A stretch of 64,000 nucleotides of DNA, taken from the NCBI GenBank assembly GCA_033648345.1, contig GCA_033648345.1_4121.1; one strand, 5' to 3'. The first letter of the stretch is position 1; each line of letters begins with the position of its first letter. The notes under the pieces are model-generated. The model saw only the letters and a program-made list of their open reading frames with translations. It was not told where the DNA came from and made no database searches. Made by a program: the position numbers and the translations under genes. The DNA is from a phage. Shown piece after piece: positions 24,108 to 44,524 of this stretch.

Positions 24108-24135
24108 AGGGTTGACTTCGGTCAGCCTTTTTTTT
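24108..24135 (+). terminator. PeSL-like stem-loop plus T8 (terminator; -10 degenerate in this copy)
   Basis: ggttgac-ttcg-gtcagcc hairpin followed by T8. Confidence 0.6.
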
Positions 24136-24136
24136 A

Positions 24137-24165
24137 TGGGACAAATTTATTAATGGTGATACAAT
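24137..24165 (+). promoter_or_regulatory. putative promoter, TGGGACA-N17-(TG)ATACAAT variant
   Basis: tgggacaaatttattaatggtgatacaat; precedes ORF-free region. Confidence 0.45.
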
Positions 24166-24171
24166 GATCTA

Positions 24172-24660
24172 TGTACAATCACAATGACAGTACTGGTACT
24201 GACAATCTTCCCCTACTTCACTTGAAAATGTAAAGGATAGATGAGCTTTTCATTGTAGCGAACAGCAAAAGAAACCCGTTAGATGTGGGCATAGTTTGAA
24301 CCCCTCACGGCAATGCGGCTGTATAAAGAACCACGTTAGGATAGCTGGTGGTTCCTCGATAGACATATAAGGATAACACCTTACGAATTATCTAAGGGAG
24401 AGTTATCGAATTTTGTACAGGAAAGTTGCGTCCAAAATTTGAGTACTCACATTAAGTATTTGATTGCATAGATACTTAATGAAGATACACTATGTTTAAA
24501 AGTGTAGACCGTCATATGAAACTGAAGTAGAGAGAAACAGGATGACCCGCTTTCGCACTCGTTATGAGTAATCTTCAATGCAATAGCTCTGATACCATCA
24601 GCGTCAAATTTCCCTCCGTGCGGGGGGAAGAAAAATCCCTTCCTCAAATCCCGTCAATAT
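24172..24660 (+). ncRNA. candidate structured non-coding RNA (about 490 nt, function unknown)
   Basis: no plus-strand ORF of 60 aa or more in an otherwise ORF-dense region; locally GC-richer; multiple stems (e.g. gaaccac...gtggttc); bracketed by promoters. Confidence 0.35.
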
Positions 24661-24669
24661 TAAAAGTCC

Positions 24670-24698
24670 TTGACAGTTATGATTCATTCGCGTAGAAT
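24670..24698 (+). promoter_or_regulatory. sigma70-type promoter TTGACA-N17-TAGAAT
   Basis: ttgacagttatgattcattcgcgtagaat. Confidence 0.5.
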
Positions 24699-24762
24699 AC
24701 GTAGTATTAGAAGCGAACAGACATCTCGAAGAGATGGATGATTAACCATTGAGGAATATCTA

Positions 24763-24972
24763 ATGAATTCAGTAATCTTTTTAATTATTGCTCTTTCACC
24801 ACAATCTGGTGTACAAATCACCCCAATGAATTCAATGAATCAATGCATTGCAGTACGTGACAGTACGTATGAACAAGTAAACAGCGTTTCACTTAGAACA
24901 GTTGGTGAAGAATTAATGTGGTGTTACAATAGTAATACTAAAGAAAAACTAATTGTTGGACAAACAGAATGA
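24763..24972 (+). CDS. hypothetical small protein with N-terminal hydrophobic segment
   Basis: ORF in track after GAGGAA. Confidence 0.4.
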   Translation: MNSVIFLIIALSPQSGVQITPMNSMNQCIAVRDSTYEQVNSVSLRTVGEELMWCYNSNTKEKLIVGQTE

Positions 24973-25196
24973 GTTATGGTGTTCGTTTTGAGATTCGTTC
25001 TATTGTTATCAATGACGAGAAACAAGCATCGTTGGATGGCGATATACGAGAACTATATCTATCATGTATCCGTGCAAAATCTGAAGCAGATGCATTATCA
25101 CAAATGATTGGTTTTAATTTCTTTCATGGATACTATTTGGTACGAGTTATCGAAGTTAAAAAAGTCACTTTTGAGTGTCTTGCTGGAGAAATATAA
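24969..25196 (+). CDS. hypothetical small protein
   Basis: ORF in track, coupled. Confidence 0.4.
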   Translation: MSYGVRFEIRSIVINDEKQASLDGDIRELYLSCIRAKSEADALSQMIGFNFFHGYYLVRVIEVKKVTFECLAGEI

Positions 25197-25197
25197 A

Positions 25198-25992
25198 ATG
25201 AGCACTATAGATGAATTGATTCGCCGGAATTCAAAATACTACGACCCATCAGAAATTGTCGGCAACATTACTAAATCTGAGTTCGGACCAAATACTCGAA
25301 AACTCATTCATGTAATGTCACGTGATGGCTTTAAATGTGATTGTTGTGGTGAATCCAATGTGGTATTCACTTTACATAAGCACAGTACTAAAGACCGTTA
25401 TAAATTCAGACCTTATGTACTTAAATGGAAACGCCTTGTACGCATGACGTTAGACCATAATGTACTGGACTGTCTTCAGGGCGGTAATGATAAAGAGAAC
25501 ATGACTGCATTGTGTGAGGATTGTAACGCATTACGCCAGCATAAGTTTGCTGAGTACAGTGAGTTTAAGCACTGGTATCATAACGCTGATCGTTCTATCG
25601 AGCCTGACGTTAACTACTGCTTCATTGAGTATATTAAGAATGCTAAAGATACATACATTCTTAAATCAATGTCACCTATTACAGTGTTCCCTGAGAATCT
25701 ATTCAGTACTATGCAGCGTGATTTTAAACGTGGTATCATTAATGCATTCAAACATTTAGACAAAGGTATCAAGCACTTTGAGGTGCAATGCTTAAATGAA
25801 GGAATGAATCGTTTAGTACAAATTTACATGAAATCATTTATAGGTGTTGACACCGCACGTCTACCAGTATATAATTACTTTATTGAAAGCGAAGAAGGTG
25901 AATCTCTTCGTGATTATGGTGAAAGATTTAATAACAAAGTCTTCGCTGCAATATCAAACGAGATTCATTACTATAAACCATATGTAATTTAA
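25198..25992 (+). CDS. HNH-motif nuclease domain protein
   Basis: track ORF 25108-25992 trimmed to ATG 25198; CDCCGE...HKHS...LDHNVLDCLQGGNDKENMTALCEDCNALRQH resembles a Cys-flanked HNH motif. Confidence 0.6.
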   Translation: MSTIDELIRRNSKYYDPSEIVGNITKSEFGPNTRKLIHVMSRDGFKCDCCGESNVVFTLHKHSTKDRYKFRPYVLKWKRLVRMTLDHNVLDCLQGGNDKENMTALCEDCNALRQHKFAEYSEFKHWYHNADRSIEPDVNYCFIEYIKNAKDTYILKSMSPITVFPENLFSTMQRDFKRGIINAFKHLDKGIKHFEVQCLNEGMNRLVQIYMKSFIGVDTARLPVYNYFIESEEGESLRDYGERFNNKVFAAISNEIHYYKPYVI

Positions 25993-26006
25993 TTAGAGGA
26001 TATATC

Positions 26007-26189
26007 ATGCAAATCATCATTCTTATCGTAGGTATCATTCTTGGTGTATATGGTCACTCCTGGATGAACGAGAAGTTCCCTAATACCCGTCCTGAGTATT
26101 GCAGTACTAATGTATTCCAGAATAGTGATAAACCAAAGGATAGTATTGGTAAGAAACTGGACAAAGTACTTGACGTAATCAACGAATAA
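26007..26189 (+). CDS. small membrane protein
   Basis: ORF in track; N-terminal TM. Confidence 0.35.
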   Translation: MQIIILIVGIILGVYGHSWMNEKFPNTRPEYCSTNVFQNSDKPKDSIGKKLDKVLDVINE

Positions 26190-26198
26190 GGGTAAAGT

Positions 26199-26399
26199 AT
26201 GTTTAAATCAAATTCGAATGTTGGTAAGAAGGTTCAATTACTTGAGGATGTATCCACCTTGAGTGGAATTTTCCCAAGAGGTCACATCATGACTATTATT
26301 GCCGAAACATCCCGTGGGTGGGATTTGGAAGATGCTGATGGTAATCGCATCCTTGAGGCTGGATTCTATGGTCATCGTGAATATAAAATCGTTGATTAA
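26199..26399 (+). CDS. hypothetical small protein
   Basis: ORF in track. Confidence 0.4.
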   Translation: MFKSNSNVGKKVQLLEDVSTLSGIFPRGHIMTIIAETSRGWDLEDADGNRILEAGFYGHREYKIVD

Positions 26400-26495
26400 G
26401 GATACAACATGACTTTAGAGATTGTCTTTGGTATTGTTAGCTTAGTCGTCTGTGTGGGTTGGTTTGGGTATCTGATGATTTTTAGTGATTAATAC

Positions 26496-26523
26496 TTGAC
26501 ATAAGATATCAGTACTGTATAAT
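26496..26523 (+). promoter_or_regulatory. early-type promoter TTGACA-N16-(TG)TATAAT with CAGTACTG spacer
   Basis: ttgacataagatatcagtactgtataat. Confidence 0.6.
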
Positions 26524-26616
26524 GTTTATATCAAAGGGAATGCAGTGAAAGGAAAGACAGCATAATCGTACTCGTCACTGCGTTTCCACCCTTTTAAATT
26601 AAATGAGGAATTAACT

Positions 26617-26925
26617 ATGTTTCAAACTAACACTCAAGGTTTTGTAATCATCGATTTGAACCAAAACAGCGGTTATTGGATGAAACCTACTGACGCATGT
26701 ATGCAGTTTGATTTTTTAGGTTACAGGATTAGTGTAAGTACTGGTGCTTCTGTACTGCGTGGTGGTTGTATCGTTGAACATCTGGTAACTGATCCAGAAG
26801 GTCGTGAGTATGAAATCGCAGGTTCAGTACAAGATGCCATTATGTTTGTATGTCAGCGTGAAATGAATAGTTCGAATTCAAATGCACTGACTCATGCTCT
26901 TTCTCAAGAAGTGGAGGTTCGTTAA
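26617..26925 (+). CDS. hypothetical protein
   Basis: ORF in track after GAGGAA. Confidence 0.45.
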   Translation: MFQTNTQGFVIIDLNQNSGYWMKPTDACMQFDFLGYRISVSTGASVLRGGCIVEHLVTDPEGREYEIAGSVQDAIMFVCQREMNSSNSNALTHALSQEVEVR

Positions 26926-27176
26926 TGAAATATATCGTAGCAGTACTCGTTGCATTTTTACTCACTGCATGTGACGCTTCAACAAAAGAACGCACAAGTG
27001 ATTTTATTCTCCCTATTGAATTACAAGAAGCAGGATGTAAGATTTATCGTATGCAAAAGGACGGTGCTGGTGTAACCTTGTATACAGTTTATTGCCCTAA
27101 TGCAAATACCAGTACTGGATACAGCAGCGGTAAAACACGAATCAATACTTCAGTGATTAATGGAGTACAACAATGA
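26925..27176 (+). CDS. putative lipoprotein
   Basis: signal peptide ending LLTAC (lipobox-like). Confidence 0.5.
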   Translation: MKYIVAVLVAFLLTACDASTKERTSDFILPIELQEAGCKIYRMQKDGAGVTLYTVYCPNANTSTGYSSGKTRINTSVINGVQQ

Positions 27177-27541
27177 GCCTTGATACAACCCGTGCAACAG
27201 ATTTATTAACTCGTCTGAATGATGAAGAATATCTTGCTGAAATAAAGTACAAGCTTGAAAAACTGGCTCGAAGTGCTGAAGTAATTGAAGTTAAAGGTCA
27301 TTTACCTATGGATCAATTCCATACGTTCAAAGAAGATATGGTTTATTATCCAAATGAAATTTGGATTGAGTGGGAACATTGGACTAACAAAACTCTACGC
27401 ATTGAAGGTTATTGTGTGAATTATGAATCTGAACCTGGTGATGTTACAAAAACTCTCTCAATTTGGTGTACAAAAACACATGAACTCGTTGAGGTGAATT
27501 TGAATTATATGAAAGGTTTCCGTTGGGGTGATGTTAAATGA
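27173..27541 (+). CDS. hypothetical protein
   Basis: ORF in track, coupled. Confidence 0.45.
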   Translation: MSLDTTRATDLLTRLNDEEYLAEIKYKLEKLARSAEVIEVKGHLPMDQFHTFKEDMVYYPNEIWIEWEHWTNKTLRIEGYCVNYESEPGDVTKTLSIWCTKTHELVEVNLNYMKGFRWGDVK

Positions 27542-27813
27542 TTAAAAAACTATTGACAGTTGTCTTTGTATTATGTACAATGTTTCTTACAGCATGTAAT
27601 GATGACGGAAGGTTTAGTGCAAAAGACTTAGTTCGTCAGGATTGTACATTCACAGGTAAGTCTTTTATTAACGAGTATGAGGTATGTACACAATCAGGTC
27701 GTATCTGTGGTGGTTGGGAAAAACGTCAGGAGCGATTGTATGTATATGAATGCCCTGGTCATCTCAACAAAGTACTAAGCACACACAAACTTGTTTATGA
27801 TAAGGTTGAATAA
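27538..27813 (+). CDS. putative lipoprotein
   Basis: signal peptide ending FLTAC. Confidence 0.5.
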   Translation: MIKKLLTVVFVLCTMFLTACNDDGRFSAKDLVRQDCTFTGKSFINEYEVCTQSGRICGGWEKRQERLYVYECPGHLNKVLSTHKLVYDKVE

Positions 27814-28028
27814 TGACTACCAATGAAATGATGCAGGTTATTTGGGATAAAGGTTGTGATATTAAAATCACTAGTACTGATGTTCGTGTATTCAAAACTG
27901 AATATATGGAGTACTTGGACCTTGATACTTATAATAATATTGTATCAATTGAACACAAAGGTGCAGTACTGGAAACAATTGACGTAGTACTGAAGAAAGC
28001 TACCGACCTATTAGGAGCGGCAGTGTGA
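27813..28028 (+). CDS. hypothetical small protein
   Basis: ORF in track, coupled. Confidence 0.4.
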   Translation: MTTNEMMQVIWDKGCDIKITSTDVRVFKTEYMEYLDLDTYNNIVSIEHKGAVLETIDVVLKKATDLLGAAV

Positions 28029-28181
28029 ATAACAAAGAGTGGGAAGAGTACCGTAAGAAGTGCAGGGAGTTTGATAAAGAACTAACTGGTACAGTGAATG
28101 CAGTAATGTGGGTATCTGTAATTATTGCAGTTCTTGCGTTGGGTGCTATTATTATTAATAAATTATTCTAAGGCGAATATC

Positions 28182-28382
28182 ATGTTTACTTTATATCTCG
28201 CAGTAGTTCTCACCAATGGTGAAATCACTCGTACTATTGGTGAAGGTGTATATAAAACACCAGACCAGTGCTACTCTGCTACTCATTGGCCTCGCGATAG
28301 TGGGGATGAAACTCGCACTGAATTCAAATGCATGAAAGTAAAAGGTGATTTTGTTAACCTTAAGGTTATCGAGGCGAAATAA
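28182..28382 (+). CDS. hypothetical small protein with N-terminal hydrophobic segment
   Basis: track ORF trimmed to ATG 28182 after AAGG. Confidence 0.4.
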   Translation: MFTLYLAVVLTNGEITRTIGEGVYKTPDQCYSATHWPRDSGDETRTEFKCMKVKGDFVNLKVIEAK

Positions 28383-28897
28383 TGGATATTAATGAGTTGT
28401 TGATCTTATTGTTTAATCGTGGAAATGATGTAAGACGTTCTGAATATCAAGACAAAATTCACATTGAAACTGATAAATGTTATGGTAAAACAACTCATGA
28501 GATTTTGAAGCCAAATGGCAAACGATATGCCGATGTATGTTTTCATGAACGAAGTGATGGTAGTGAAATAATCAGTACTGAAATTGTGTTTTATGATAGA
28601 TCCTCGGCAGGTTCGTATGAAATAGAACTTATATATTGTCCTGGTTCAGAAACACACAATAAACGTCAGATATTATATGATGTTTATTCACCTCCAGGTG
28701 TAGCTGAATATTTTGTTATTGATTACAGTACTGAAGAAAGTGTGTTTCAACAGAGCTTGATTCATAACTTCCAGTTGAATGATCCAAATGTACCAAAGTT
28801 GTTCAAACTACTCGATACTATCGATGTTGATTTTGAATTTGTTATGTGCATTAGAACTTCCTTGATCGATGAATTTATGGAACTACTTAATATATGA
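28382..28897 (+). CDS. hypothetical protein, EE-x-F-Q-Q-S motif family
   Basis: ORF in track; STEESVFQQSLIHN. Confidence 0.5.
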   Translation: MDINELLILLFNRGNDVRRSEYQDKIHIETDKCYGKTTHEILKPNGKRYADVCFHERSDGSEIISTEIVFYDRSSAGSYEIELIYCPGSETHNKRQILYDVYSPPGVAEYFVIDYSTEESVFQQSLIHNFQLNDPNVPKLFKLLDTIDVDFEFVMCIRTSLIDEFMELLNI

Positions 28898-29115
28898 ATC
28901 GTTACTACATTGTGTATGAGCATGTATCTGAGTTTAATAATGTACGTGGTTATAAGAAAGAAGTACAGAAGATTGATGTATTTGTTCGTGCATTAAGTCC
29001 AACACATGCACTATTTAAATTGTTTGATGAAGTAACTAAGTACAACACACCAAAAACACAACGCTATATTGAAACAGTACATAGTGTAATACTCACTGAA
29101 TATGATGGAGAATGA
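28894..29115 (+). CDS. hypothetical small protein
   Basis: ORF in track, coupled. Confidence 0.4.
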   Translation: MNRYYIVYEHVSEFNNVRGYKKEVQKIDVFVRALSPTHALFKLFDEVTKYNTPKTQRYIETVHSVILTEYDGE

Positions 29116-29118
29116 CAA

Positions 29119-29337: not shown

Positions 29338-29338
29338 G

Positions 29339-29542: not shown

Positions 29543-29578
29543 TAACTACATCAAAAAACAACTGCAACTGAGGATACT

Positions 29579-30474: not shown

Positions 30475-30485
30475 TACTGTATAAT
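30458..30485 (+). promoter_or_regulatory. early-type promoter TTGACA-N16-(TG)TATAAT
   Basis: ttgacaaacgtttgtagtactgtataat. Confidence 0.6.
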
Positions 30486-32048: not shown

Positions 32049-32240
32049 ATGTTGATTTACCAATGTGATAACATTCGTGTTATGCAGCATCCCTACTTAC
32101 AAATCTTTGATGTGCAGCAGTATATGGAAGGTGATGACCCAAGAACCTATGGTCGTAAGTATGATTACTTCACTGTAAAGCAGTGTCATAACATCAAAGA
32201 AGTACGACAATTAGTTCAAGAACTTCAAAATAAAGGTTGA
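32049..32240 (+). CDS. hypothetical small protein
   Basis: track ORF trimmed to ATG 32049. Confidence 0.4.
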   Translation: MLIYQCDNIRVMQHPYLQIFDVQQYMEGDDPRTYGRKYDYFTVKQCHNIKEVRQLVQELQNKG

Positions 32241-32266
32241 CTTCGGTCAACCTTTTTTGTTATAAT
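32232..32266 (+). promoter_or_regulatory. PeSL cassette (stem-loop/terminator overlapping -35 TTGACT, then TATAAT)
   Basis: ggttgac-TTCG-gtcaacc, T6, tataat read directly; nine related copies in window. Confidence 0.7.
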
Positions 32267-32295
32267 TATTTCATCAACTACTGGGGATTTTAATT

Positions 32296-33709: not shown

Positions 33710-33934
33710 ATGAAATATCTAGTACTAGTACTGCTATTCTTGAGTACTGTTGTATGTGCTAAACCAAAGTATCATGTAGTGTGTGTCAACGAGATGGAAG
33801 GATATACTGAAACATATAAGAACCATATTGTTGAAGTTGTAGCCCAAGGTTCCTATGGGACCATCATCTTCCTTAAGAACAATGTGATTGTTCAGTACAA
33901 AAAAGATTCAAATTGTAAAGTGACTAAAAAATGA
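33710..33934 (+). CDS. secreted small protein (signal peptide)
   Basis: leader MKYLVLVLLFLSTVVCA. Confidence 0.45.
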   Translation: MKYLVLVLLFLSTVVCAKPKYHVVCVNEMEGYTETYKNHIVEVVAQGSYGTIIFLKNNVIVQYKKDSNCKVTKK

Positions 33935-34004
33935 TCTAGATCAATTTTTCAGATATTCTCTGTAAATAATAGCAGTACAGAACATTATTTTACGGAGGTG
34001 TAAT

Positions 34005-34241
34005 ATGGAAACTATAATCATCATATGTGCGTTGTTTGCATTTTTGGTAATGTGGTCACCAACATTCATTGCATATAAAATGAAAAATAAAAATGCAGAA
34101 GCAATTATGTACGTAAACTTATGTTGCATACTAACTTATGGAATACTTTTATTCTTTACTGAATTTACATTAATCCCAGTAGTAGTTTGTTCATCAATGT
34201 TTATTTGGTTGTTTCTGCTTTATGAATCTATTAAAAAATAA
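34005..34241 (+). CDS. small membrane protein
   Basis: ORF in track after GGAGG; hydrophobic. Confidence 0.4.
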   Translation: METIIIICALFAFLVMWSPTFIAYKMKNKNAEAIMYVNLCCILTYGILLFFTEFTLIPVVVCSSMFIWLFLLYESIKK

Positions 34242-34295
34242 AAGATATAGGGTTGGTATTATACCAACCCTTTTACTTTATGTGGGGTTTAATTA

Positions 34296-35820: not shown

Positions 35821-35824
35821 TTAA

Positions 35825-35860
35825 AAGGGGTTGACTTCGGTCAGCCCTTTGTCGTATAAT
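35825..35860 (+). promoter_or_regulatory. PeSL cassette
   Basis: gggttgac-TTCG-gtcagccc then tataat. Confidence 0.7.
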
Positions 35861-35906
35861 ATTTTCATTGCTAGAACATAAACCAACTGAGGTAATCATA
35901 TCAAAC

Positions 35907-36462: not shown

Positions 36463-36483
36463 TGGTATAGTACAGTGAAAATA

Positions 36484-36514
36484 GGGTTGACTTCGGTCAA
36501 CCTTTATATATAAT
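36484..36514 (+). promoter_or_regulatory. PeSL cassette
   Basis: ggttgac-TTCG-gtcaacc then tataat. Confidence 0.7.
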
Positions 36515-36527
36515 GGAAGAAATAAAC

Positions 36528-37055
36528 ATGGAACGTTGGAAATTAATTCCTGATTATGACTATTCAATTTCTGATCATGGAAGAGTAAGAAACGAACAAA
36601 CTGGATATATAAGTTGTGGATTTAAAAATAAAGATGGGTATGTGAAGGTCGATTTGTATCGCAATTCTGTGAAAAATAGAAAGGCGATTCATCGACTAGT
36701 AGCTGAAGCATTTTTACCACCACCCACACAGAAACAGTTACAGTGGGCGAGTAGAACAAAGAAAAAAGTTGTTCACATAAACCATAAAGATTGTAATAGA
36801 AGTAACAATCACTATTTGAATTTGGAATGGAGCACAGCATCTGAAAACGTACTATATTCTTATTCACATGGTAACGCAACAACTAATCGTGGTGCTGCTG
36901 TGTTGACATGGGAAATTGTAAGAGAAATAAGAAAAGATTATAATGATAATTATAATGATGTGATAGAATATGCACGAGAAAATTGTAATAAATACCGTGT
37001 ATGTAAAAAAACAATACGTCGTATTTTATACAATCAAACATGGATAGAGGATTAA
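36528..37055 (+). CDS. HNH homing endonuclease (NUMOD4-like N-terminus plus HNH)
   Basis: WKLIPDYDYSISDHGRVRN and HINHKDCNRSNNHYLNLEWSTASEN; start set to ATG 36528 because track start overlaps the -10 box. Confidence 0.8.
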   Translation: MERWKLIPDYDYSISDHGRVRNEQTGYISCGFKNKDGYVKVDLYRNSVKNRKAIHRLVAEAFLPPPTQKQLQWASRTKKKVVHINHKDCNRSNNHYLNLEWSTASENVLYSYSHGNATTNRGAAVLTWEIVREIRKDYNDNYNDVIEYARENCNKYRVCKKTIRRILYNQTWIED

Positions 37056-37059
37056 AAAT

Positions 37060-38553
37060 ATGCCACAAGATAATGGGGATATGAAACATCGTAATGGTGG
37101 ACTAGTACAACACTCGGATAAATGGGCCGACCGAAATCGTCGCAAAAATAGTTATCAAGCAGGACAAGGTTCACGTGGTTCCAGAAACCAAGGAACGGGA
37201 CTTGCTGGTAAGGCAAACGCAGAAGCAGGTGAAGTTAAGAGTACTGAGAACATGACTGAGCTAGAAAAGCTACGTTATGTTAACTCATTAGGTCTTCTTA
37301 ACGCAACACAGAAACAACGCCTTGCTGATATGGAACGTGCTGAGAAAGAACAAGCAGTTCCTAAAGAAGAACCAAAACCAGAAGCTCCTAAAGCAGCTAA
37401 CCCTGTTAAAGAGTTATCTGATAACTTAGGTAAGATCTTTGCTAACAAACCACAGTTGATTCAGGGTATTGTCAAAGCACTACAGGCAGTTCCTAAAGAA
37501 GAACTCAAAGGTAAAGCACAAGCTGTACTTGATGCAATGAAAGGTAATAAGAGCACTGAACCCACTGAAGTATTCAGTACTATCATGCGTGCACTTGAAG
37601 GTACACACAAAGAAGATTCCAAAGAACCTGAACAGGGTGAAGCAAGTCTTGATGGTATTCTTAAAACTTTTGATAGTATTGGTAAAGCAGACCGTGCTAA
37701 TGCCCAGCAAGTCAAGAATGTACTGGCTAAACTTGAAAACCGTTTAGAAGGTAAAGATGATAAGGTTAAGCTCGTATCAGATGCAGTTAACAGTGCACTT
37801 AAATCTTATGTACAAGGTGAGAAAAGTCGCTTCGTAACAGCTATGGATGCTGCATTCAACACTATGAAAAAGTATGAAGCAGAACATGGTGAGAAAGTGA
37901 CACCTGATGGATATCTACTACGTAAAGATGAAGAAGGTGCAGTTGAACAGAAAGATGTTGAGCCTGAGCAAGAAGATCTACCTGATACCGTTGATATGGA
38001 TGGATACATTCATCGTCCTGAGATGGAAGAGTTTGGGTCAGATAAAGAAGGTTTTGAACATGCAATGGCAGTATATAAAGCATTAGTTAAAAATCCAGAT
38101 TATGCTAACCGTTTTGTTGACGAGTTTGATAGTGCATGGAATAACTACAAAGAGAAAGGTTATGATTTCCCTGCTGAAGCTGCATTCTTTGAACTTGGTA
38201 AACTATTAGCTAAACATGGAATTGACGTTGGTTCATCTGATTCCGAAGGTATGGAAGAAGAACATCTTGAAATGACCGATAAATCAATTCATGAACTTCA
38301 AAAGCTAATGATGTGGATATCCGAGATTGGTAAAAAAGCAGGTGCTGATAGTAAAAGTATCAACAAAAACATTAGTTGGATTAAAGATAATGTTGGTAAC
38401 AATGCTCGTAAACTACAAAAGGCGTGGGCTGATTTAGTAAATGGTGCAGATGATGTTGACATTGAATCACCAGAAGCATATGAGTATGCACTAACTACGC
38501 TCGATAACTCATTCAAAGAGTACGACCGTGGTGTTGGAAAAGATAAAAAATAA
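37060..38553 (+). CDS. hypothetical acidic, K/E-rich protein (497 aa)
   Basis: long ORF in track; low-complexity charged composition. Confidence 0.6.
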   Translation: MPQDNGDMKHRNGGLVQHSDKWADRNRRKNSYQAGQGSRGSRNQGTGLAGKANAEAGEVKSTENMTELEKLRYVNSLGLLNATQKQRLADMERAEKEQAVPKEEPKPEAPKAANPVKELSDNLGKIFANKPQLIQGIVKALQAVPKEELKGKAQAVLDAMKGNKSTEPTEVFSTIMRALEGTHKEDSKEPEQGEASLDGILKTFDSIGKADRANAQQVKNVLAKLENRLEGKDDKVKLVSDAVNSALKSYVQGEKSRFVTAMDAAFNTMKKYEAEHGEKVTPDGYLLRKDEEGAVEQKDVEPEQEDLPDTVDMDGYIHRPEMEEFGSDKEGFEHAMAVYKALVKNPDYANRFVDEFDSAWNNYKEKGYDFPAEAAFFELGKLLAKHGIDVGSSDSEGMEEEHLEMTDKSIHELQKLMMWISEIGKKAGADSKSINKNISWIKDNVGNNARKLQKAWADLVNGADDVDIESPEAYEYALTTLDNSFKEYDRGVGKDKK

Positions 38554-38560
38554 ACATTTA

Positions 38561-38596
38561 AAAGGTTGACTTCGGTCAACCTTTTTTTGTAAATAT
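38561..38596 (+). promoter_or_regulatory. PeSL cassette (weak -10)
   Basis: ggttgac-TTCG-gtcaacc followed by T7. Confidence 0.6.
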
Positions 38597-38624
38597 TGTA
38601 GAGGGTTTTATAAGAGGTAATGCA

Positions 38625-38876: not shown

Positions 38877-39237
38877 CACGGTTGCAATGTGTAATGATAT
38901 TGAGAGTACTAAGAAAGTATATACTAATGGTGAAAATACTTTTAGATTCCACAATCTTACTACCAATGAAAGTTTATACTTCTACAACTGTAAAGAGTTC
39001 ATTAAACCTGTGGATAACTCATGTGATATGCCGGAGCCAAAAGCTGCTGTATGTGAGGAACCACAATCCAAAGCTGACAAAGATTCAAAAGATAAGAAAG
39101 ACAAAGCTGACAAATCGGATAAAAAAGAAAACAAAAAGAAAGCTAAAGATGATAAAGATAAAAAGTCCCCTAAGCCAAATCCATTTGAAAAGCCAAAGAA
39201 TGAAAAGCCAAAACCAGACATGACATGTAAAATATAA
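38863..39237 (+). CDS. hypothetical protein with Lys/Asp-rich low-complexity tail
   Basis: ORF in track; KKDKADKSDKKENKKKAKDDKDKK; competing overlapping frame. Confidence 0.4.
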   Translation: MNSGDTVAMCNDIESTKKVYTNGENTFRFHNLTTNESLYFYNCKEFIKPVDNSCDMPEPKAAVCEEPQSKADKDSKDKKDKADKSDKKENKKKAKDDKDKKSPKPNPFEKPKNEKPKPDMTCKI

Positions 39238-39242
39238 AAGAA

Positions 39243-39277
39243 AAGGGTTGACTTCGGTCGGCCCTTTTTGCTATAAT
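39243..39277 (+). promoter_or_regulatory. PeSL cassette
   Basis: gggttgac-TTCG-gtcggccc then tataat. Confidence 0.7.
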
Positions 39278-39303
39278 CATTTCATCAACTACTGGAGGTA
39301 AAC

Positions 39304-39717
39304 ATGTTAAAAGTTATTTTCCGTTCTATCAGTTCATTACTTCTTATGATTAGTTCAGTTTGTTATGCAAATGAAGTATCTGATTTATTTGAGAAGAATT
39401 ACCCAACCGCACAAGAGATGGGTGTTTTAAAATGCAAGCTAACTTCGTACAACATCATCGGCAGTAAACTTGTACTGGAACATGAACGTAGTACACCAAT
39501 CCCTCTAGTAGAAGAAGGCAGTACCTTTAGCTTCAAGTACGGGGTGAATGTAACATCTGGTGTAATGAACAATGTTGATGCAGAGACTGGTTCAACATGG
39601 AGTACTAGCGGTAAAGATGTGTTTCATCGTATGCGTGAAAATGGTAAACTGAAGTACGTATATGAAAGTTCATTCATGAAACGTGTATTCATTATAAAAA
39701 ATTGTGTACCAGCATAA
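39304..39717 (+). CDS. secreted protein (signal peptide)
   Basis: leader ...LLMISSVCYA; GGAGG RBS. Confidence 0.5.
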   Translation: MLKVIFRSISSLLLMISSVCYANEVSDLFEKNYPTAQEMGVLKCKLTSYNIIGSKLVLEHERSTPIPLVEEGSTFSFKYGVNVTSGVMNNVDAETGSTWSTSGKDVFHRMRENGKLKYVYESSFMKRVFIIKNCVPA

Positions 39718-39728
39718 GGAACAACATC

Positions 39729-40004
39729 ATGCGTTCATTTGAAAACTTAATCGGTAAACTTCGCTTACAAGAAATTGAAGATGATGTGAAGGAATTATCT
39801 GAAACTAAGAGTTACATTCATTTAGATGAACTGTTTATTAAGTACGGTGAGATTGGTTTTAAGTCATTATTTGTTTTTGTCATGAAGGTGCATAGTTTAA
39901 AGTACTTTGATTTGAGTTCAAAAGACGGACAACCAAATCTGTATTACATGTATTATCTTAAGAACATAGACGAAGCTAATACATTATTCTTAGAATATAT
40001 GTAG
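39729..40004 (+). CDS. hypothetical protein
   Basis: track ORF trimmed to ATG 39729 after AAGGAA. Confidence 0.4.
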   Translation: MRSFENLIGKLRLQEIEDDVKELSETKSYIHLDELFIKYGEIGFKSLFVFVMKVHSLKYFDLSSKDGQPNLYYMYYLKNIDEANTLFLEYM

Positions 40005-40014
40005 GGGTAAAAAA

Positions 40015-40353
40015 ATGGAACAACATTTTGAATTAATTAATAAGGTATCATTTTATGTAGTATCGTTAATTTGGGTGTATTACATGTTTTGTTACATTAT
40101 TGCATTCTTCCGATACACAACCTTGTATCAACGCATATACTACGATGCACCCATTTCATTTATGATGTTCTGTGCATGTACGTGGGGGATAATTGAAGCA
40201 CTGGTATGTGGATATAGTACTGACGAATTAAATCTCGTATCGGTGTTGACATTACTAACAATTGCTACTATGATAGCTACTGTTCCGATATTTTTGCTCT
40301 TTAAACTGCTTCATCGCATCGATGAGTGGCGTAATAAAATCCCTGAAAAGTAA
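40015..40353 (+). CDS. small membrane protein, tandem-array family (C-terminal R-x-K-I/M-P-E/N-K/R tail)
   Basis: hydrophobic helices; C-terminus RNKIPEK; paralogous to 45394-47833 array. Confidence 0.55.
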   Translation: MEQHFELINKVSFYVVSLIWVYYMFCYIIAFFRYTTLYQRIYYDAPISFMMFCACTWGIIEALVCGYSTDELNLVSVLTLLTIATMIATVPIFLLFKLLHRIDEWRNKIPEK

Positions 40354-40362
40354 GGATTGATA

Positions 40363-40704
40363 ATGATTTTTTACACTAATGCGTTTGCTTATGCCGTTGC
40401 ATCAATCTACATTGTGTACTTCTTATTTGGTGGAGTACTGTACTTCTTTAAGTACAAAACATTGTTTAACCGAATGTATCCAAATCATCCAATTGTAGTA
40501 GTACTTTTGATTATTTCTGTTGCTCACATCATTGTAGAAACAATAATGGGTATCAGTGCAGTACATTACAGTCTAGGTACTATTGTAATTATTACTATGA
40601 TCATCGCATACATTTTAGTAATGGGTTTTGGTTTATTTGGAAATGTAGCAATGAAATTGTATAATCGAATCAAAACATTACGTGATAATCTACCGGAGCG
40701 TTGA
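40363..40704 (+). CDS. small membrane protein, tandem-array family
   Basis: C-terminus RDNLPER; coupled. Confidence 0.55.
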   Translation: MIFYTNAFAYAVASIYIVYFLFGGVLYFFKYKTLFNRMYPNHPIVVVLLIISVAHIIVETIMGISAVHYSLGTIVIITMIIAYILVMGFGLFGNVAMKLYNRIKTLRDNLPER

Positions 40705-40705
40705 G

Positions 40706-41050
40706 ATGTATAATTTAAATTTAATATCATATATCATAACAACACTGTTTACTTTCTATGCCTTTGTTGGTATACTCCTACTGTACTTTAAATTTTATAA
40801 ACTTTTTGATCGTTTTTATCCGTCATTAGAACATGAATTCTTATTAGTGATGTACATATGTCTAACGTTTATGTCTACATTTTTCACTGCATCTGATGGT
40901 ATCATTGGTATTAAAGCTGAAGAACCAAATGGGAGTACGCTTGTTGCCTTTATTCTGGTAGGATTTTTCAGTACTTATATTACCTTTATTTCAGGATGTA
41001 CCGTGATTGATTATCTTGTGAAATTACGAGATAAAATGCCAAATCGATAG
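40706..41050 (+). CDS. small membrane protein, tandem-array family
   Basis: C-terminus RDKMPNR. Confidence 0.55.
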   Translation: MYNLNLISYIITTLFTFYAFVGILLLYFKFYKLFDRFYPSLEHEFLLVMYICLTFMSTFFTASDGIIGIKAEEPNGSTLVAFILVGFFSTYITFISGCTVIDYLVKLRDKMPNR

Positions 41051-41059
41051 GGGATTGCT

Positions 41060-41317
41060 ATGTTTGCATTGCGTAATAAAAATACAAAAGAGATTCTGTG
41101 TATCTCAACAGTATGGGATTGTGCAGGAAGTGAAATGATTCTCGAAGAAGGTTCAGGTGATTGTGTTTATGTTGTTCAGGATCGTCGCGAACTGGAATCA
41201 TTACTTGACGAATTTAATGCTGGTGGAAATCCTAAAAGTACTCAATTCCCTGAGATCAGGAATCCAGCACCACCAGGCTCTTATGAAATTCTACAACTGT
41301 GGGAGATGGATAAGTAA
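41060..41317 (+). CDS. hypothetical small protein
   Basis: ORF in track. Confidence 0.4.
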   Translation: MFALRNKNTKEILCISTVWDCAGSEMILEEGSGDCVYVVQDRRELESLLDEFNAGGNPKSTQFPEIRNPAPPGSYEILQLWEMDK

Positions 41318-41697
41318 TGCGTCAAATGCACAAAGTAACCGAGCTAAACAAGCGTCTGATTAAACAATCAATGTTTGAGGATAAAGAGTCTTACTATAAC
41401 TTCAAACGTGCTGTAGAGGCTGCTATCCACATTCAGAAGCTTAAAGATAGTGGATGTATTATTCTCGAAAATGGTTCTGACGTTGTTACTGATGACTTCA
41501 GTGTAGCGTTTGATGTTTCACCTGATGGTTCGCTATCAATGCCACGCTTAGGGACTGGTGACATGACTGTGTGGGTAGGTTTCACTATGGGGAATGTACC
41601 AGGCACGGTGTATGTAGATGATGCTGAGTTGAAAGAAAGCTTCAAAAACTTATCGCATCTTGAACCACAATACGCACATGAAATGAATTTATTTTGA
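41317..41697 (+). CDS. hypothetical protein
   Basis: ORF in track, ATGA-coupled. Confidence 0.45.
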   Translation: MRQMHKVTELNKRLIKQSMFEDKESYYNFKRAVEAAIHIQKLKDSGCIILENGSDVVTDDFSVAFDVSPDGSLSMPRLGTGDMTVWVGFTMGNVPGTVYVDDAELKESFKNLSHLEPQYAHEMNLF

Positions 41698-41698
41698 G

Positions 41699-41726
41699 TT
41701 GACAAACTCATTCAGTACTGTATAAT
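41699..41726 (+). promoter_or_regulatory. early-type promoter TTGACA-N16-(TG)TATAAT with CAGTACTG spacer
   Basis: ttgacaaactcattcagtactgtataat. Confidence 0.6.
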
Positions 41727-41773
41727 GTTTATCAAGGGGATGAACTTCTCATCCCCACAATCGAGGAATTGTC

Positions 41774-42328
41774 ATGATTACTTTTAAGAAAACTGCTAAC
41801 CACATCCATGAGATCTACATTAACGGTCACAAAGCTGGCCTTCTTCGTTTACTCGCCCATCATCCGAATATTACCGTATCTGATAATGAACCTAAAGATT
41901 GGCGTGTATTTTTCTTTGGAAAGTACAGTGATTTTCAAGTATCAAACCTGAAGAACATTCGTTCAGTATGCACGTTAACTGAAATTAAAGAAAAGTTAAC
42001 CAAAGCATTGAAAACTAATCCAGATAGTGTTCTTCCACCTGATAACTTTGTAGAGAAAGGATATGCCTTAGCTCATTTCAAAGATGGTACTATTCAATCT
42101 ATCAGTACTGAATATGAATATCAATGGACTGAGTACTTCACTTATGGATCGCGTAATACATTGATGGCTTCACGTAGTAAATTGGAAGAAGTACTGACTC
42201 GTATGAATGAACGCGAGCGTCAATTTTATGACAAACCAGAAATGTGGAGTTCAACTTACATTGACCGTATTGACTATGTTATTATGACTCCAATCTTTGA
42301 CACTGCTTACTATGATTCTTTGAAATAA
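41774..42328 (+). CDS. hypothetical protein
   Basis: ORF in track after GAGGAA. Confidence 0.5.
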   Translation: MITFKKTANHIHEIYINGHKAGLLRLLAHHPNITVSDNEPKDWRVFFFGKYSDFQVSNLKNIRSVCTLTEIKEKLTKALKTNPDSVLPPDNFVEKGYALAHFKDGTIQSISTEYEYQWTEYFTYGSRNTLMASRSKLEEVLTRMNERERQFYDKPEMWSSTYIDRIDYVIMTPIFDTAYYDSLK

Positions 42329-42544
42329 GGATAACTTATATGAAACTACGTACTCGTAATCGACTGATGGATGCACTGTACCATGAACAGCTTTCACTGA
42401 ATGAAGTGAAGCGTCAGTTAATGTACACATATCTGTTACCCGCTCGCATTGCAAAACAACGTGCTAAAGAATTGCTGAAAGAAGCAATCGAGTACTGGGA
42501 ATCTGATTCGTACTAATTGTCACGTTAATTAAGTGAGGCGATAA

Positions 42545-42796
42545 ATGAAAATTTTATTAGTTCTAATACTACTAATTGTTTTACCATTTACGTTAGTATC
42601 CCCTGAACTTGCATGGAATGTGTTTGTGTACTTACTATGTACTATTGTAGTAAATGGTATCTTGTTCTTAGTTCTATTCATAAATGGAATAGGACACGGT
42701 GGAGGATGGACCAGTACTGCTGATATTGTACATAAAACCACTATGTCTTTATTTGTAGTGTGGAATTTATTCTGGACTTGGTTTGTGTTCTTCTAA
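42545..42796 (+). CDS. small membrane protein
   Basis: hydrophobic throughout. Confidence 0.4.
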   Translation: MKILLVLILLIVLPFTLVSPELAWNVFVYLLCTIVVNGILFLVLFINGIGHGGGWTSTADIVHKTTMSLFVVWNLFWTWFVFF

Positions 42797-42805
42797 TTAA
42801 AAAAT

Positions 42806-43177
42806 ATGAATATAGATTTGAAAGGTGCAACCCGAACTGTCATACTCATTGGGGAATATGCTATCAAGATTCCAACCTTTAAAAGTTGGAAGCTATTCTT
42901 AACAGGGATGATAGCTAACCTCAATGAACGTTCTTGGATGCAGTACTCCAAGCGTAGTGATAGTGGTATCTGCCCTACGTTGTGGTCATCATGTACTGGA
43001 CTAGTAACTGTACAGAAACGTTGTAAGCCAGTACAACATAGGGGTTTATTTTGGGTGGAGTTGTGTGCTTTAGCATTGGATTCAGAGTTGAGTACTGACT
43101 TCTTCTATTCAGATGCGAAGCCAGAAAACTTTGGGTATCTGGGTGGTAAGTTAGTTAAACTTGATTATGGAGATTAA
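42806..43177 (+). CDS. minimal protein-kinase-like protein (123 aa)
   Basis: YAIKIP (VAIK-like), DAKPENFG (HRDLKPEN-like catalytic loop) and VKLDYGD (DFG-like) at kinase-appropriate spacing; no C-lobe. Confidence 0.45.
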   Translation: MNIDLKGATRTVILIGEYAIKIPTFKSWKLFLTGMIANLNERSWMQYSKRSDSGICPTLWSSCTGLVTVQKRCKPVQHRGLFWVELCALALDSELSTDFFYSDAKPENFGYLGGKLVKLDYGD

Positions 43178-43178
43178 T

Positions 43179-43601
43179 ATGTACGCACTGTATAATAAAG
43201 AAAAGAAACAATTTGCTAAGGTTGAAAAATCGATTGATACATTTGGCATGTTTAAGTACTGTATTGTGACGGACCCATATGCTAACTTGTATTACGTTCT
43301 TGATGACGTATCAGTACTGCAACGATTGCTTGAACGTTCCAAAAGCCAATGTCAAGGTATCCATGATGGTTCAACTTATGAAACACCTGAGTGTTCCTAT
43401 GGCTATCTGGATGGGTATGAGATTGTGAAGTTGGGTGCATTGTTGATTAATGAGGAATTTATGAAACTATGTACATGTGATGATTGTGGTAAACAAATAC
43501 CAGAAAGTGAAGTATATCGTAATGAAACTGCATTCGGTGATGATGGTGACTACTGTCAGGATTGTTTTTACGAGAACCATTATGATTTTGGCGATGATTA
43601 A
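43179..43601 (+). CDS. hypothetical protein with Cys-rich C-terminus (possible zinc ribbon)
   Basis: track ORF trimmed to ATG 43179; CTCDDCGK...DYCQDCF. Confidence 0.45.
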   Translation: MYALYNKEKKQFAKVEKSIDTFGMFKYCIVTDPYANLYYVLDDVSVLQRLLERSKSQCQGIHDGSTYETPECSYGYLDGYEIVKLGALLINEEFMKLCTCDDCGKQIPESEVYRNETAFGDDGDYCQDCFYENHYDFGDD

Positions 43602-43605
43602 AACA

Positions 43606-43640
43606 AAGGGTTGACTTCGGTCAGCCCTTTTTGTTATAAT
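43606..43640 (+). promoter_or_regulatory. PeSL cassette upstream of denV
   Basis: gggttgac-TTCG-gtcagccc then tataat. Confidence 0.7.
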
Positions 43641-43668
43641 CATTTCATCGAAACGAGAGGATGAATAC

Positions 43669-44145
43669 ATGACACGCATTAACTTAGTACACGTTAAAGA
43701 ACTTGCTGACCAACATCTGATGGCTGAATATCGTGAACTCCCACGTGTATTTGGTGCTGTACAAAAACACGTTCAAGCACGTAAGCGTGTACGTGATTTC
43801 AAAATTAACAGTACTTACCTGTTAGGTTCAGGTCATGTAACATTCTTCTACAACAAGTTATTGTACTTACAGAAGCGTCATATTGAAATTGTTAACGAAT
43901 GTTTGCGTCGTGGTATGAAGATTCAAAACATTGAATTAAACGACATTAGCGGCTTCCCTGCTGAGTTTTGTAATGACTACGTACCATCGGAGTCAGAGAT
44001 TAAAATGTCTCGTGAGCGTTTGATTGAGAAGCTACAGATGAAGCCTACGTGGTATAAGTTTACTGATGTTGAATGTCCACAGTACGTTAAAGATATGTTG
44101 AATGAAATTGAAGAACAAATCAAAGATGAAATGAATAACTATTAA
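43669..44145 (+). CDS. denV: DenV-type pyrimidine-dimer DNA glycosylase (T4 endonuclease V family)
   Basis: MTRINL...[21 protein letters not shown]...KRVRDFKI...GHVTFFY...RPTWYK closely matches the T4 endonuclease V sequence as I recall it. Confidence 0.93.
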
Positions 44146-44150
44146 AGGAA

Positions 44151-44185
44151 AAGGTTGACTTCGGTCAGCCATTTTTGTTATTATA
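44151..44185 (+). promoter_or_regulatory. PeSL cassette (weak -10)
   Basis: ggttgac-TTCG-gtcagcc. Confidence 0.6.
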
Positions 44186-44214
44186 GCTCTATCGAAACGA
44201 ATGAGGATTAAGTA

Positions 44215-44472
44215 ATGATTAAATTAAAATTTGAAGGTATGCGTGATGGGAATGGTAACCTAATCATTACACGAGGTACTAAAGCAGTACGATGCTTAGA
44301 AGAACATGGTATTGAATTTACTATTCCATACGATGATATCAGGATTAAAGAGGATACGGTACTGGAATTGCCACTCACTACATTTGAAGAATTGAATGCA
44401 TTTTGTCAAACATATAATGCACTAATCACTTTCGATGAACGTAATTGTGTTATTGAATTTTTACAACACTGA
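44215..44472 (+). CDS. hypothetical protein
   Basis: ORF in track after GAGGA. Confidence 0.45.
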   Translation: MIKLKFEGMRDGNGNLIITRGTKAVRCLEEHGIEFTIPYDDIRIKEDTVLELPLTTFEELNAFCQTYNALITFDERNCVIEFLQH

Positions 44473-44488
44473 TGATTAAGTAATAAAG

Positions 44489-44524
44489 AAAGGGTTGACA
44501 CTAGTCAGCCCTTTTTGCTATAAT
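44489..44524 (+). promoter_or_regulatory. PeSL cassette variant (loop ACTA, -35 TTGACA)
   Basis: gggttgac-acta-gtcagccc then tataat. Confidence 0.65.

Follow-up and report, generated by a model that had tools for sequence, protein, structure and literature searches.

Why should one composite motif, a hairpin with a promoter built into it, recur nine times between small genes of a single phage? The question is raised by a 64,000-nucleotide stretch of phage DNA (NCBI GenBank assembly GCA_033648345.1, contig GCA_033648345.1_4121.1; hereafter the window), in which positions 24,108 to 44,524 had been predicted, from the letters, to hold nine copies of a UUCG-loop hairpin with a -35 hexamer in its 5' arm, followed by a T-run and a -10 box. 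The original prediction likened these copies to the promoter-early stem-loop elements (PeSLs) of T4-type phages. PeSLs combine a sigma-70-like early promoter with a stem-loop terminator or attenuator in the gap between two genes, where they reach from a stop codon to an ATG, and they are concentrated in hyperplastic regions where they adjoin insertions and deletions (PMC2839356, PMC4122927). Our analysis supports the view that the nine elements are PeSL-type terminator/promoter cassettes, presumably active and mobile. Each element is probably an intrinsic terminator fused to a sigma-70 early promoter that forms a cassette boundary of the PeSL type. This functional reading draws on sequence anatomy and on reporter assays of the RB49 and phi1 PeSLs, whose promoter and terminator activities were shown by experiment (PMC2839356).

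A search of the window with TTGACTTCGGTCA, allowing one mismatch or less, finds eight occurrences, all on the + strand, where 0.02 would be expected; a ninth copy, at 44495, has the same arms and the loop ACTA. The pattern TTGACNNNNGTCA gives 11 matches against 0.62 expected, three of them being the reverse reading of perfect palindromes. All nine predicted positions (24108, 32232, 35825, 36484, 38561, 39243, 43606, 44151 and 44489, used below to name the copies) indeed carry the motif on the + strand. When the 33-nt hairpin and T-run were made into a covariance model and searched for without filters, the nine copies scored 42.6-53.6 bits and the reverse-strand readings of these same copies up to 31 bits. 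The model found no tenth copy in the 64-kb window; the next + strand match, a diverged hairpin, reaches only 19.1 bits, and ordinary terminators come after it in the ranking, so that the list of nine is complete for the window. All nine copies fold as the predicted hairpin, with free energies of -10.9 to -17.1 kcal/mol and z-scores of -4.3 to -5.8 relative to shuffled sequences. A scan of the whole window with Rfam gathering thresholds returned three tRNA genes only and no match at the nine elements.

The copies share the consensus A(2-5) G(2-4) TTGAC-TTCG-GTC(A/G)(A/G)CC(C) T(3-8). The predicted order of UUCG hairpin, -35 in the 5' arm, T-run and -10 is thus borne out by their alignment and folding, exceptions in single copies aside. 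TTGAC forms the inner 5' arm and, together with the first loop base, a sigma-70 -35 hexamer TTGACT. After an 18-nt spacer comes TATAAT in five copies (32232, 35825, 39243, 43606 and 44489) and TATTAT in 44151, and five of these six have TGn before the -10. The two hexamers agree with the consensus at 10-12 of 12 positions, copies 24108 and 38561 falling short of what we accept as a promoter. Since the T-run is placed between the stem and the -10, it would be at once terminator tail and part of the promoter spacer. Five to eight T directly follow the stem in six copies, three T in 35825 and 36484, and an A and then five T in 44151. In every copy 2-5 A stand ahead of the G clamp, and the flanking sequence further upstream is AT-rich. 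Similarity among the copies continues past the -10, as CATTTCATCAACT... or ...ATCGAAACGA..., and then GAGG or GGAGG. A Shine-Dalgarno sequence and ATG lie downstream in 38561 and in the six copies with the 18-nt spacer, where the leader measures roughly 30 nt and the ATG is 27-47 nt past the -10. All nine copies occupy gaps between + strand open reading frames (ORFs), on the coding strand, and the upstream stop codon lies 1-16 nt ahead of the hairpin or, in 32232, inside it. There the TGA (32238-32240) that ends ORF 32049-32240 is the TGA within the -35 TTGACT, so coding sequence, hairpin arm and promoter overlap. The coordinates are collected in Table 1.

Table 1. Elements, structural differences from related phages, and other repeats and RNA genes in the window (positions from its first letter; free energy in kcal/mol, covariance-model score in bits; aa, amino acids).
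Feature	Position	Strand	Description	Free energy	Score
Copy 24108	24104-24135	+	hairpin AAAGGGTTGAC-TTCG-GTCAGCCTTTT, T8	-13.9	49.8
Copy 32232	32230-32295	+	hairpin, T6, TGT-TATAAT at 18 nt, leader ATTTCATCAACTACTGGGG, ATG 32296; 11/12 promoter match with TG	-13.3	50.2
Copy 35825	35822-35906	+	hairpin GGGGTTGAC-TTCG-GTCAGCCC, short T-run TTTGTCG, TATAAT at 18 nt, ATG 35907	-16.9	44.7
Copy 36484	36480-36527	+	hairpin GGGTTGAC-TTCG-GTCAACC, T3, TATAAT at 16 nt	-12.1	42.6
Copy 38561	38558-38624	+	perfect palindrome AAAAGGTTGAC-TTCG-GTCAACCTTTT, T-run, degenerate -10 (TGTAAA/TAAATA), ATG 38625	-14.2	48.9
Copy 39243	39240-39303	+	hairpin GTCGGCCC with two G.U pairs, T5, TGC-TATAAT at 18 nt, leader CATTTCATCAACTACTGGAGG, ATG 39304	-16.3	50.5
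Copy 43606	43603-43668	+	hairpin, T5, TGT-TATAAT at 18 nt, leader CATTTCATCGAAACGAGAGG, denV ATG 43669	-16.7	53.6
Copy 44151	44148-44214	+	7-bp stem GGTTGAC/GTCAGCC, A then T5, TGT-TATTAT at 18 nt, leader ...ATCGAAACGAATGAGG, ATG 44215 (85-aa ORF)	-10.9	49.9
Copy 44489	44487-44552	+	hairpin with loop ACTA, T5, TGC-TATAAT at 18 nt, leader CATTTCATCAACTCAAGAGG, ATG 44553; 12/12 promoter match with TG	-17.1	44.0
Possible diverged relative	34243-34276	+	AGGGTTGGTA-TTA-TACCAACCCT and TTTTACTTT, without usable -35 or -10		19.1
Difference E1	26517-26544	+	321-bp gene of WPEC5 and 121Q missing here
Difference E2	33823-34290		inserted cassette, absent from 121Q and G17; 3' end is the diverged hairpin 34249-34271
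Difference E3	35862/35895-35905		37-aa gene of WPEC5, CMSTMSU and 121Q lost here; border in leader of copy 35825
Difference E4	36506-37110		endonuclease insertion directly behind hairpin of copy 36484
Difference E5	38997-39225 and 39278-39714		both flanks replaced relative to 121Q and G17; copy 39243 (39226-39277) kept
Difference E6	43436/43451 to 43594/43604		variable slot ending at 5' edge of copy 43606; unique small ORF here
Difference E7	44073/44166-44488		hot spot between denV and the 257-aa AAA-like gene; copy 44151 is left border, copy 44489 right border
Second hairpin family	63270-63252, 59611-59582, 56070-56052, 54822-54798, 50954-50936, 49747-49729	-	49747 and 59611 are variants
Second family, bidirectional hairpin	47838-47864
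tRNA genes (Rfam)	7137-7215, 9338-9424, 11777-11849	+

To which phage do these elements belong? Escherichia phages CMSTMSU, vB_Ec-M-J, WPEC5 and Turkey3 share 97-98% identity with the window, and 121Q and PBECO4 about 88%. These relatives are jumbo myoviruses of 348-386 kb, and those with a full taxonomy line are placed in the genus Asteriusvirus (Rak2-like group), outside Straboviridae in the NCBI lineage. By its sequence, the source is an Asteriusvirus, a 121Q/PBECO4-like jumbo phage of E. coli, and not a T4-type phage. The + strand is the coding strand up to about 48 kb, the - strand beyond that point. Relatives are annotated over the 24-45 kb region with almost nothing other than short hypothetical proteins of 40-190 aa, the named genes being a sigma factor, HNH endonucleases, superinfection-immunity-like genes, two 'virion structural' genes, denV and, in 121Q, a protein kinase. 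The annotation of CMSTMSU was left unused because that record is flagged UNVERIFIED_ORG and its gene calls are fragmentary. A comparable stretch of short genes with RpoD-like promoters is the presumed early region of the Rak2-like phage CBB (CBB paper).

Individual copies depart from the common plan in ways that were largely foreseen. Copy 24108 had been called terminator-only, and the lack of any -10 at 15-19 nt from its -35 agrees with this. Copy 44489 has the variant loop ascribed to it, and that loop, ACTA, completes a perfect consensus -35, TTGACA; the copy serves a 257-aa AAA-like gene, and copy 43606 serves denV, assigned by its Pyr_excise match. Of two copies said to have degenerate -10 boxes, 38561 lacks a good one and keeps the same degenerate form in 121Q and G17, while 44151 has TATTAT at 18 nt. 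The gene upstream of 38561 encodes 497 aa, a virion structural protein by the relatives' annotation. For 36484 the hairpin and TATAAT stand as predicted, but the description has to be corrected: the spacer is 16 nt, and no more than 13 nt separate the -10 from the start codon of a gene that has been inserted. That gene (36528-37055, + strand), directly 3' of the hairpin, encodes a free-standing HNH_3/NUMOD4 homing endonuclease and has taken the place of the first ~50 nt of the structural gene behind it. In relatives the hairpin is followed by CTATAAATA, a T4-late-like motif (TATAAATA type), ahead of the structural gene. The -10 context of 36484 is therefore due to the insertion.

Copy 24108 lies 3 nt past the stop codon of a sigma-70-family gene (23133-24101, + strand), in which Pfam Sigma70_r2 and Sigma70_r3 are matched and region 4 is not. 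One might speculate that the missing region 4 match fits promoters without a -35, such as those of a second hairpin family described below or TATAAATA-like motifs. Just behind the copy is a separate promoter-like site (24138-24165, + strand; GGGACA-16-TGA-TACAAT), and the corresponding place in 121Q also has an extended -10. The ~430-660 nt following this sigma-factor terminator (24136-24563, possibly to 24762, + strand) contain no convincing ORF. A permissive Rfam scan of this stretch gave only a sub-threshold match to the terminator end of PhrS, and folding of 24165-24460 is no better than that of shuffles (z = -0.4), which lends no support to a structured RNA here.

If the hairpin works as RNA, its pairing should be seen in the variation between copies. 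The covariance model, applied to the relatives' loci and to a scan of IMG/VR, gave 206 matches, the best 150 of which were aligned and reduced to 112 distinct sequences. In this set 96.8% of stem cells form standard pairs and 29 stem cells carry compensatory double changes, chiefly in the outer pairs. The 5' arm is fixed because stem and -35 both constrain it. The 3' arm varies almost only by A and G exchange opposite U (U.G 86, U-A 13), a change that keeps the + strand RNA helix, breaks the DNA palindrome and would place C.A mismatches in an RNA of the - strand. The 121Q orthologue of copy 24108, TTGGC-TTAT-GCCAA, has lost the -35, and a compensatory A-T to G-C change keeps its stem. These patterns suggest that the hairpin acts as + strand RNA. 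The prevalence of G.U would also remove a mirror-image TTGAC from the opposite strand.

The repeat itself can be separated from two simpler origins. The genes flanking the copies are mutually unrelated except for one weak pair, the ORFs upstream of 35825 and 38561 (27% identity); the repeat is thus no by-product of gene duplication, and paralogy of the flanking genes is ruled out as its cause. A repeat resembling a miniature inverted-repeat transposable element or a repetitive extragenic palindrome is ruled out by the single orientation, the fixed distance to stop and start codons and the lack of flanking duplications in the alignments.

We hypothesize that a transcript arriving from upstream would form the GC-clamped hairpin, closed by the UUCG tetraloop, and be released in the U-run. 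The same DNA would act as a promoter in which the upstream A-run takes the position of an UP element, TTGAC and the first loop base serve as -35, and the 3' arm and T-run make up the 18-nt spacer. From the TGn-extended TATAAT, transcription would then begin about 7 nt further on, giving an mRNA in which a short leader is followed by a Shine-Dalgarno sequence and ATG. With its start site 3' of the hairpin, this mRNA would not contain its own terminator, and the fusion of terminator and promoter would leave each gene or small gene group transcriptionally insulated and self-sufficient. A terminator inside the promoter would also prevent promoter occlusion by read-through. Copies 24108 and 38561 would be terminators only, and in 36484 the downstream part would have been replaced by the homing-endonuclease insertion. 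Secondarily, conserved repeats of 50-60 nt between unrelated genes may serve as linkers where recombination, deletion and insertion occur or survive, and the region would evolve by cassette shuffling. We infer termination, early initiation by the host RNA polymerase and a causal role in recombination from the sequence.

Do rearrangements in this region respect the elements? We compared 23-46 kb with WPEC5, CMSTMSU, 121Q and G17, counting junctions by hand and thus approximately. Seven structural differences were found, five of them with a border inside an element. Breakpoints occur at six of the nine element-bearing junctions and at 2-4 of about 51 others (Fisher p = 4e-5 to 3e-4). In the first difference there is a 28-nt overlap between the blocks of homology, and two stem-loop-less early promoters that WPEC5 possesses are joined as a hybrid at the junction, which points to deletion by exchange between promoter repeats; promoters at this junction region (26496-26544, + strand) have the form TTGACA...CAGTACTGTATAATGTTTATATCAAA. 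At the endonuclease insertion, homology to WPEC5 and CMSTMSU ends at 36505 and restarts at 37111. The flanks replaced around 39243 include the 121Q protein-kinase gene. The slot before 43606 holds unrelated sequence in WPEC5 and CMSTMSU, an HNH gene in vB_Ec-M-J, WPEC3 and fEgEco12, and nothing in 121Q. The small ORF found there in the window (43461-43601, + strand) encodes about 46 aa with two CxxC pairs (MKLCTCDDCGKQ...CQDCFYENHYDFGDD).

The hot spot behind denV contains a single 85-aa ORF in the window and at least 674 bp in G17 (where the locus ends); in CMSTMSU, 121Q and WPEC5 it measures 1.9, 2.9 and 3.9 kb and is filled with other cassettes, each bounded by further copies; the annotation of fEgEco12 puts denV directly ahead of the homologue of the 257-aa gene. 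Homology to CMSTMSU, WPEC5 and 121Q restarts exactly at 44489, and the left border in 121Q is a truncated half-hairpin, GGGTTGACTTCGGT|TACAC. The 85-aa ORF (44215-44472, + strand), with an element on each side, has homologues of 33-36% identity in Klebsiella RaK2-like phages only, and none was found in other records of Escherichia phages. The RaK2 homologue is located two genes past denV. Immediately ahead of it stands a similar element, in which the same hairpin is combined with a TATTAT -10 and an ATC-AAACGAA leader. Conservation is thus far stronger in the element than in the gene that it serves.

It is possible, though not probable, that the elements are punctuation only, the breakpoints around them resulting from adjacent homing-endonuclease insertion and from selection for expression-neutral insertions. 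The HNH_3/NUMOD4 gene behind 36484 speaks for this view: it is absent from WPEC5, CMSTMSU, 121Q and G17, 99.4% identical in EC.P1, the sole other Asteriusvirus record with it, and otherwise below 42% identity to scattered endonucleases of other phages. HNH, endonuclease or DUF4379 genes of relatives also sit in slots beside elements, upstream of the denV element and in the denV-AAA hot spot, and by our count five of six distinct endonuclease insertions in the region abut an element. Yet the loss of the 37-aa gene at 35825, the replaced flanks of 39243 and the 85-aa ORF cassette involve no endonuclease gene, the 321-bp deletion bears the signature of repeat-to-repeat recombination in its overlap of two promoter copies, and circles from exchange between neighbouring PeSLs were detected in RB49 and phi1 (PMC2839356). 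The breakpoint association and the 321-bp deletion support a role of the elements as recombination linkers, which they may play in addition to their putative role as fused terminator and promoter.

The elements are widespread beyond the window. Using one 60-nt copy, blastn finds matches in 378 phage records, with 6-12 matching places in each Rak2-like jumbo phage and others in KVP40, nt-1 and their relatives, Slopekvirus, Certrevirus, Aeromonas T4-likes and more; the motif also occurs in Straboviridae KP27, Vequintavirinae CR9 and a Brochothrix phage. An exact-pattern scan of IMG/VR gave 36 stretches, mostly on contigs of 345-378 kb and a few on contigs of 109-247 kb. Seven of the eight exact matches in 121Q (348.5 kb) fall in a stretch of about 14 kb that is orthologous to 32-44.5 kb of the window. 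RaK2 has the same composite with fixed arms at 209500-216500 (local positions 744, 3468, 5472, 5816 and 6475), its loops varying freely (ATAA, TTCG, GAAA, TTAT, TTTG). The annotated start of RaK2 ORF294 overlaps an element and is probably miscalled, and for neighbouring small ORFs of RaK2 the annotation gives similarity to genes of T4-like phage JS98 and Shigella phage phiSboM-AG3.

Such a distribution could in principle arise by convergent optimisation, a compact strong design having been reached independently by copies that are neither related by descent nor mobile; we consider this unlikely. Almost all conserved bases can be assigned a plausible function (UP-like A-run, GGG clamp, TTGAC, tetraloop, complement, U-run, TGn, TATAAT, CAT start context, GAGG), so that convergence is possible for a motif found in unrelated phage families. 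Its presence in genomes as different as those of Straboviridae, Vequintavirinae, contigs of 109-162 kb and a Brochothrix phage, and the freedom of the RaK2 loops to vary, are in keeping with such an origin. However, the copies share leader sequence beyond the obvious signals. The 13-mer CATCGAAACGAGA stands at an identical offset from the -10 in 43606 and in an element of vibriophage nt-1 at 55.55 kb. Two leader subtypes (ATCAAC... and ATCGAAAC...) recur within and between genomes, ATCAACT being common to 32232, 39243, 44489 and an nt-1 element at 54.95 kb. The likeness of the elements ahead of the 85-aa ORF and its diverged RaK2 counterpart speaks for strong constraint and also fits descent. 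Given that the leader contains the start context and ribosome-binding site, we take its sharing as modest evidence for common descent.

A bolder extension, which we judge rather unlikely, is that hairpin, promoter and leader together form a linker that circulates among unrelated large myoviruses as a common recombination and expression interface for small early genes. It would connect Rak2-like jumbo phages, schizo-T4 vibriophages, Aeromonas T4-likes, Vequintavirinae and others, and the HNH endonucleases beside the cassette may supply the DNA breaks. A hand-off of RNA polymerase to the next promoter is a further possibility, as the polymerase stays on the DNA after termination (Harden et al. 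2020, PMC6978322).

There is little reason to see the hairpins instead as stabilisers of mRNA 3' ends or RNase processing sites on long polycistronic early transcripts. Hairpins of the C(UUCG)G type, reportedly first noticed by Tuerk et al. in 1988 in T4 intercistronic regions, are exceptionally stable, and three copies have poor U-runs. Against this, the run of T directly behind the stem in six copies is the signature of an intrinsic terminator, and a strong promoter just downstream would be pointless were read-through the rule; stabilisation and termination are in any case compatible with each other. Least probable by far is that the inverted repeat GGTTGAC-N4-GTCAACC is a DNA operator at which a dimeric phage or host protein covers the -35 to shut off early promoters: all copies do have a palindrome over the -35, and early transcription has to be switched off by the phage, whose own sigma-factor gene is next to 24108, but the DNA symmetry is broken by G for A in six of the nine copies and in 86 of the 112 distinct copies elsewhere while the RNA still pairs G.U, a T-run always follows the palindrome, terminator-only copies exist, both arms have changed in compensation in the 121Q orthologue of 24108, and no candidate binding protein was identified.

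Several observations weigh against the reading of the elements as fused terminators and early promoters that take part in recombination. A generic sigma-70 scan shows no overall enrichment (85 promoters found, 85.3 expected), its sole informative class being that with 11-12 of 12 matches, all on the + strand. The 18-nt spacer exceeds the optimum by one base. Copies 35825, 36484 and 44151, with a short or interrupted T-run or a 7-bp stem, may be weak terminators. The inner stem is nearly invariant and the covariation support comes chiefly from the outer pairs. The breakpoint association rests on four relatives and about 60 hand-counted junctions, and it could reflect selection, if only insertions at cassette borders are viable, or homing endonucleases instead of recombination promoted by the elements.

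The window contains other repeats. A second hairpin family on the - strand has the form (AT)GCCAGTAC-N3-GTACTGGC, T-run, TTAAATATAGTATAAT, in the order hairpin, TTTTCTTTTT, TTAAATATAGTATAATGAATAAAGGAGG, ATG. It precedes tandem paralogous RCC1-like genes that all start with MLPF..., so its repetition, unlike that of the nine copies, can be explained by tandem gene duplication. Lacking a TTGACA -35, the family may represent a different promoter class, one that the phage sigma factor perhaps reads. An 8-bp palindrome, CAGTACTG, was counted 38 times where 0.89 is expected (none of 100 shuffles reaches 4), at positions that include 4372, 7750, 8171, 26510, 41713, 56054 and 62713. It is found in coding and intergenic DNA without a wider flanking consensus, fills the spacer just ahead of the -10 in several stem-loop-less sigma-70-like promoters (TTGAC(T/A)...CAGTACTGTATAAT), and supplies, through its half-sites, the stems of the second hairpin family. 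A site of protein binding or of modification is one possibility. Strong TTGACT...CAGTACTGTATAAT promoters stand at 7.7-10.2 kb, in the same area as the tRNA genes.

What would it mean if the nine elements are what we propose? The early region of these 350-385 kb phages would consist of plug-in units, each with its own promoter and terminator. This would explain how small genes of host takeover, immunity and repair are gained, lost and swapped with the expression of their neighbours undisturbed, and the PeSL concept would extend beyond the T4-like phages in which it was defined. For annotation, the elements mark likely borders of early transcription units in jumbo phages, where terminators and promoters are now listed separately. 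As compact natural parts of about 60 nt that combine a terminator, a strong promoter and a ribosome-binding site, they are also candidates for use in phage engineering. The advance is incremental, as both this kind of element and the role proposed for it have been published before; what is added is its occurrence in a jumbo-phage lineage, and we found no paper in the searchable literature that names PeSLs in Rak2-like or Asteriusvirus phages.

How closely do the elements resemble those already described? The nearest are the PeSLs of nt-1 and KVP40, which have an A3-4 G3-loop-C3 T3-4 stem and a TTGYVH-N17-TAWWAT promoter (PMC4122927). Window copies are 77-82% identical over about 53 nt to nt-1 and KVP40 elements, the matching nt-1 elements lying at 44.63 kb (AAAAAGGGTTGACAGATGTCAGCCCTTTTTTGTATCAT), 54.95 kb and 55.55 kb; the first is the gap between ORF109 and ORF110 and the other two belong to the 51-56 kb series, both discussed as PeSLs (PMC4122927). 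They have in common the design of A-run, GGG, TTG..., CCC and T-run, with the -35 TTG in the 5' arm and the T-run as spacer. Both continue with a TAWWAT -10, often after TG, a short leader, a Shine-Dalgarno sequence and ATG, and both lie in regions of small ORFans beside insertions and deletions. They differ in that the nt-1 and KVP40 elements belong to Straboviridae infecting Vibrio and those of the window to a jumbo phage of E. coli, an Asteriusvirus. Stems in nt-1 are also shorter and more varied (TTGC..., TTGAC...), whereas TTGAC/GTCA and UUCG are almost fixed in the window and the -10 is nearer to consensus. The predicted PeSL match therefore stands on sequence and context (intergenic promoter, stable stem-loop, AT-rich upstream tract, small-gene region, indel borders, and a resemblance of about 80% identity to nt-1 elements) and departs from the definition in that the host genome is not T4-like, which concerns taxonomic scope and not mechanism. 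Copies 24108 and 38561 correspond to published 'degraded' or half PeSLs.

The PeSLs of RB49 and phi1 likewise place a near-consensus TTGACA-N17-TATAAT promoter and a stem-loop between stop codon and ATG. The PeSL stem-loop can take five possible positions, overlap with the -35 among them; in RB49 and phi1 it is a polyG/polyC structure of variable position, mostly between -35 and -10 or over the -10 (PMC2839356). In the window, unlike in RB49 and phi1, it always lies over the -35, and the window elements are known as predictions from DNA. The C(UUCG)G intrinsic terminators between cistrons of T4 have the same GC-rich stem, a UUCG loop closed by C-G and a U-run. An ordinary terminator, unlike the window elements, has no promoter hexamer in its stem, no -10 at a fixed distance, no leader and no Shine-Dalgarno sequence. 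The depositors of G17 annotated the hairpins as terminators, predicted with ARNold, and the CBB paper gives RpoD-like promoters and terminators as separate lists. Finally, the second hairpin family of the window recalls the promoter-middle stem-loops of nt-1, in which a terminator hairpin is fused to another class of promoter, suggesting that composites of this design are built on more than one type of promoter.

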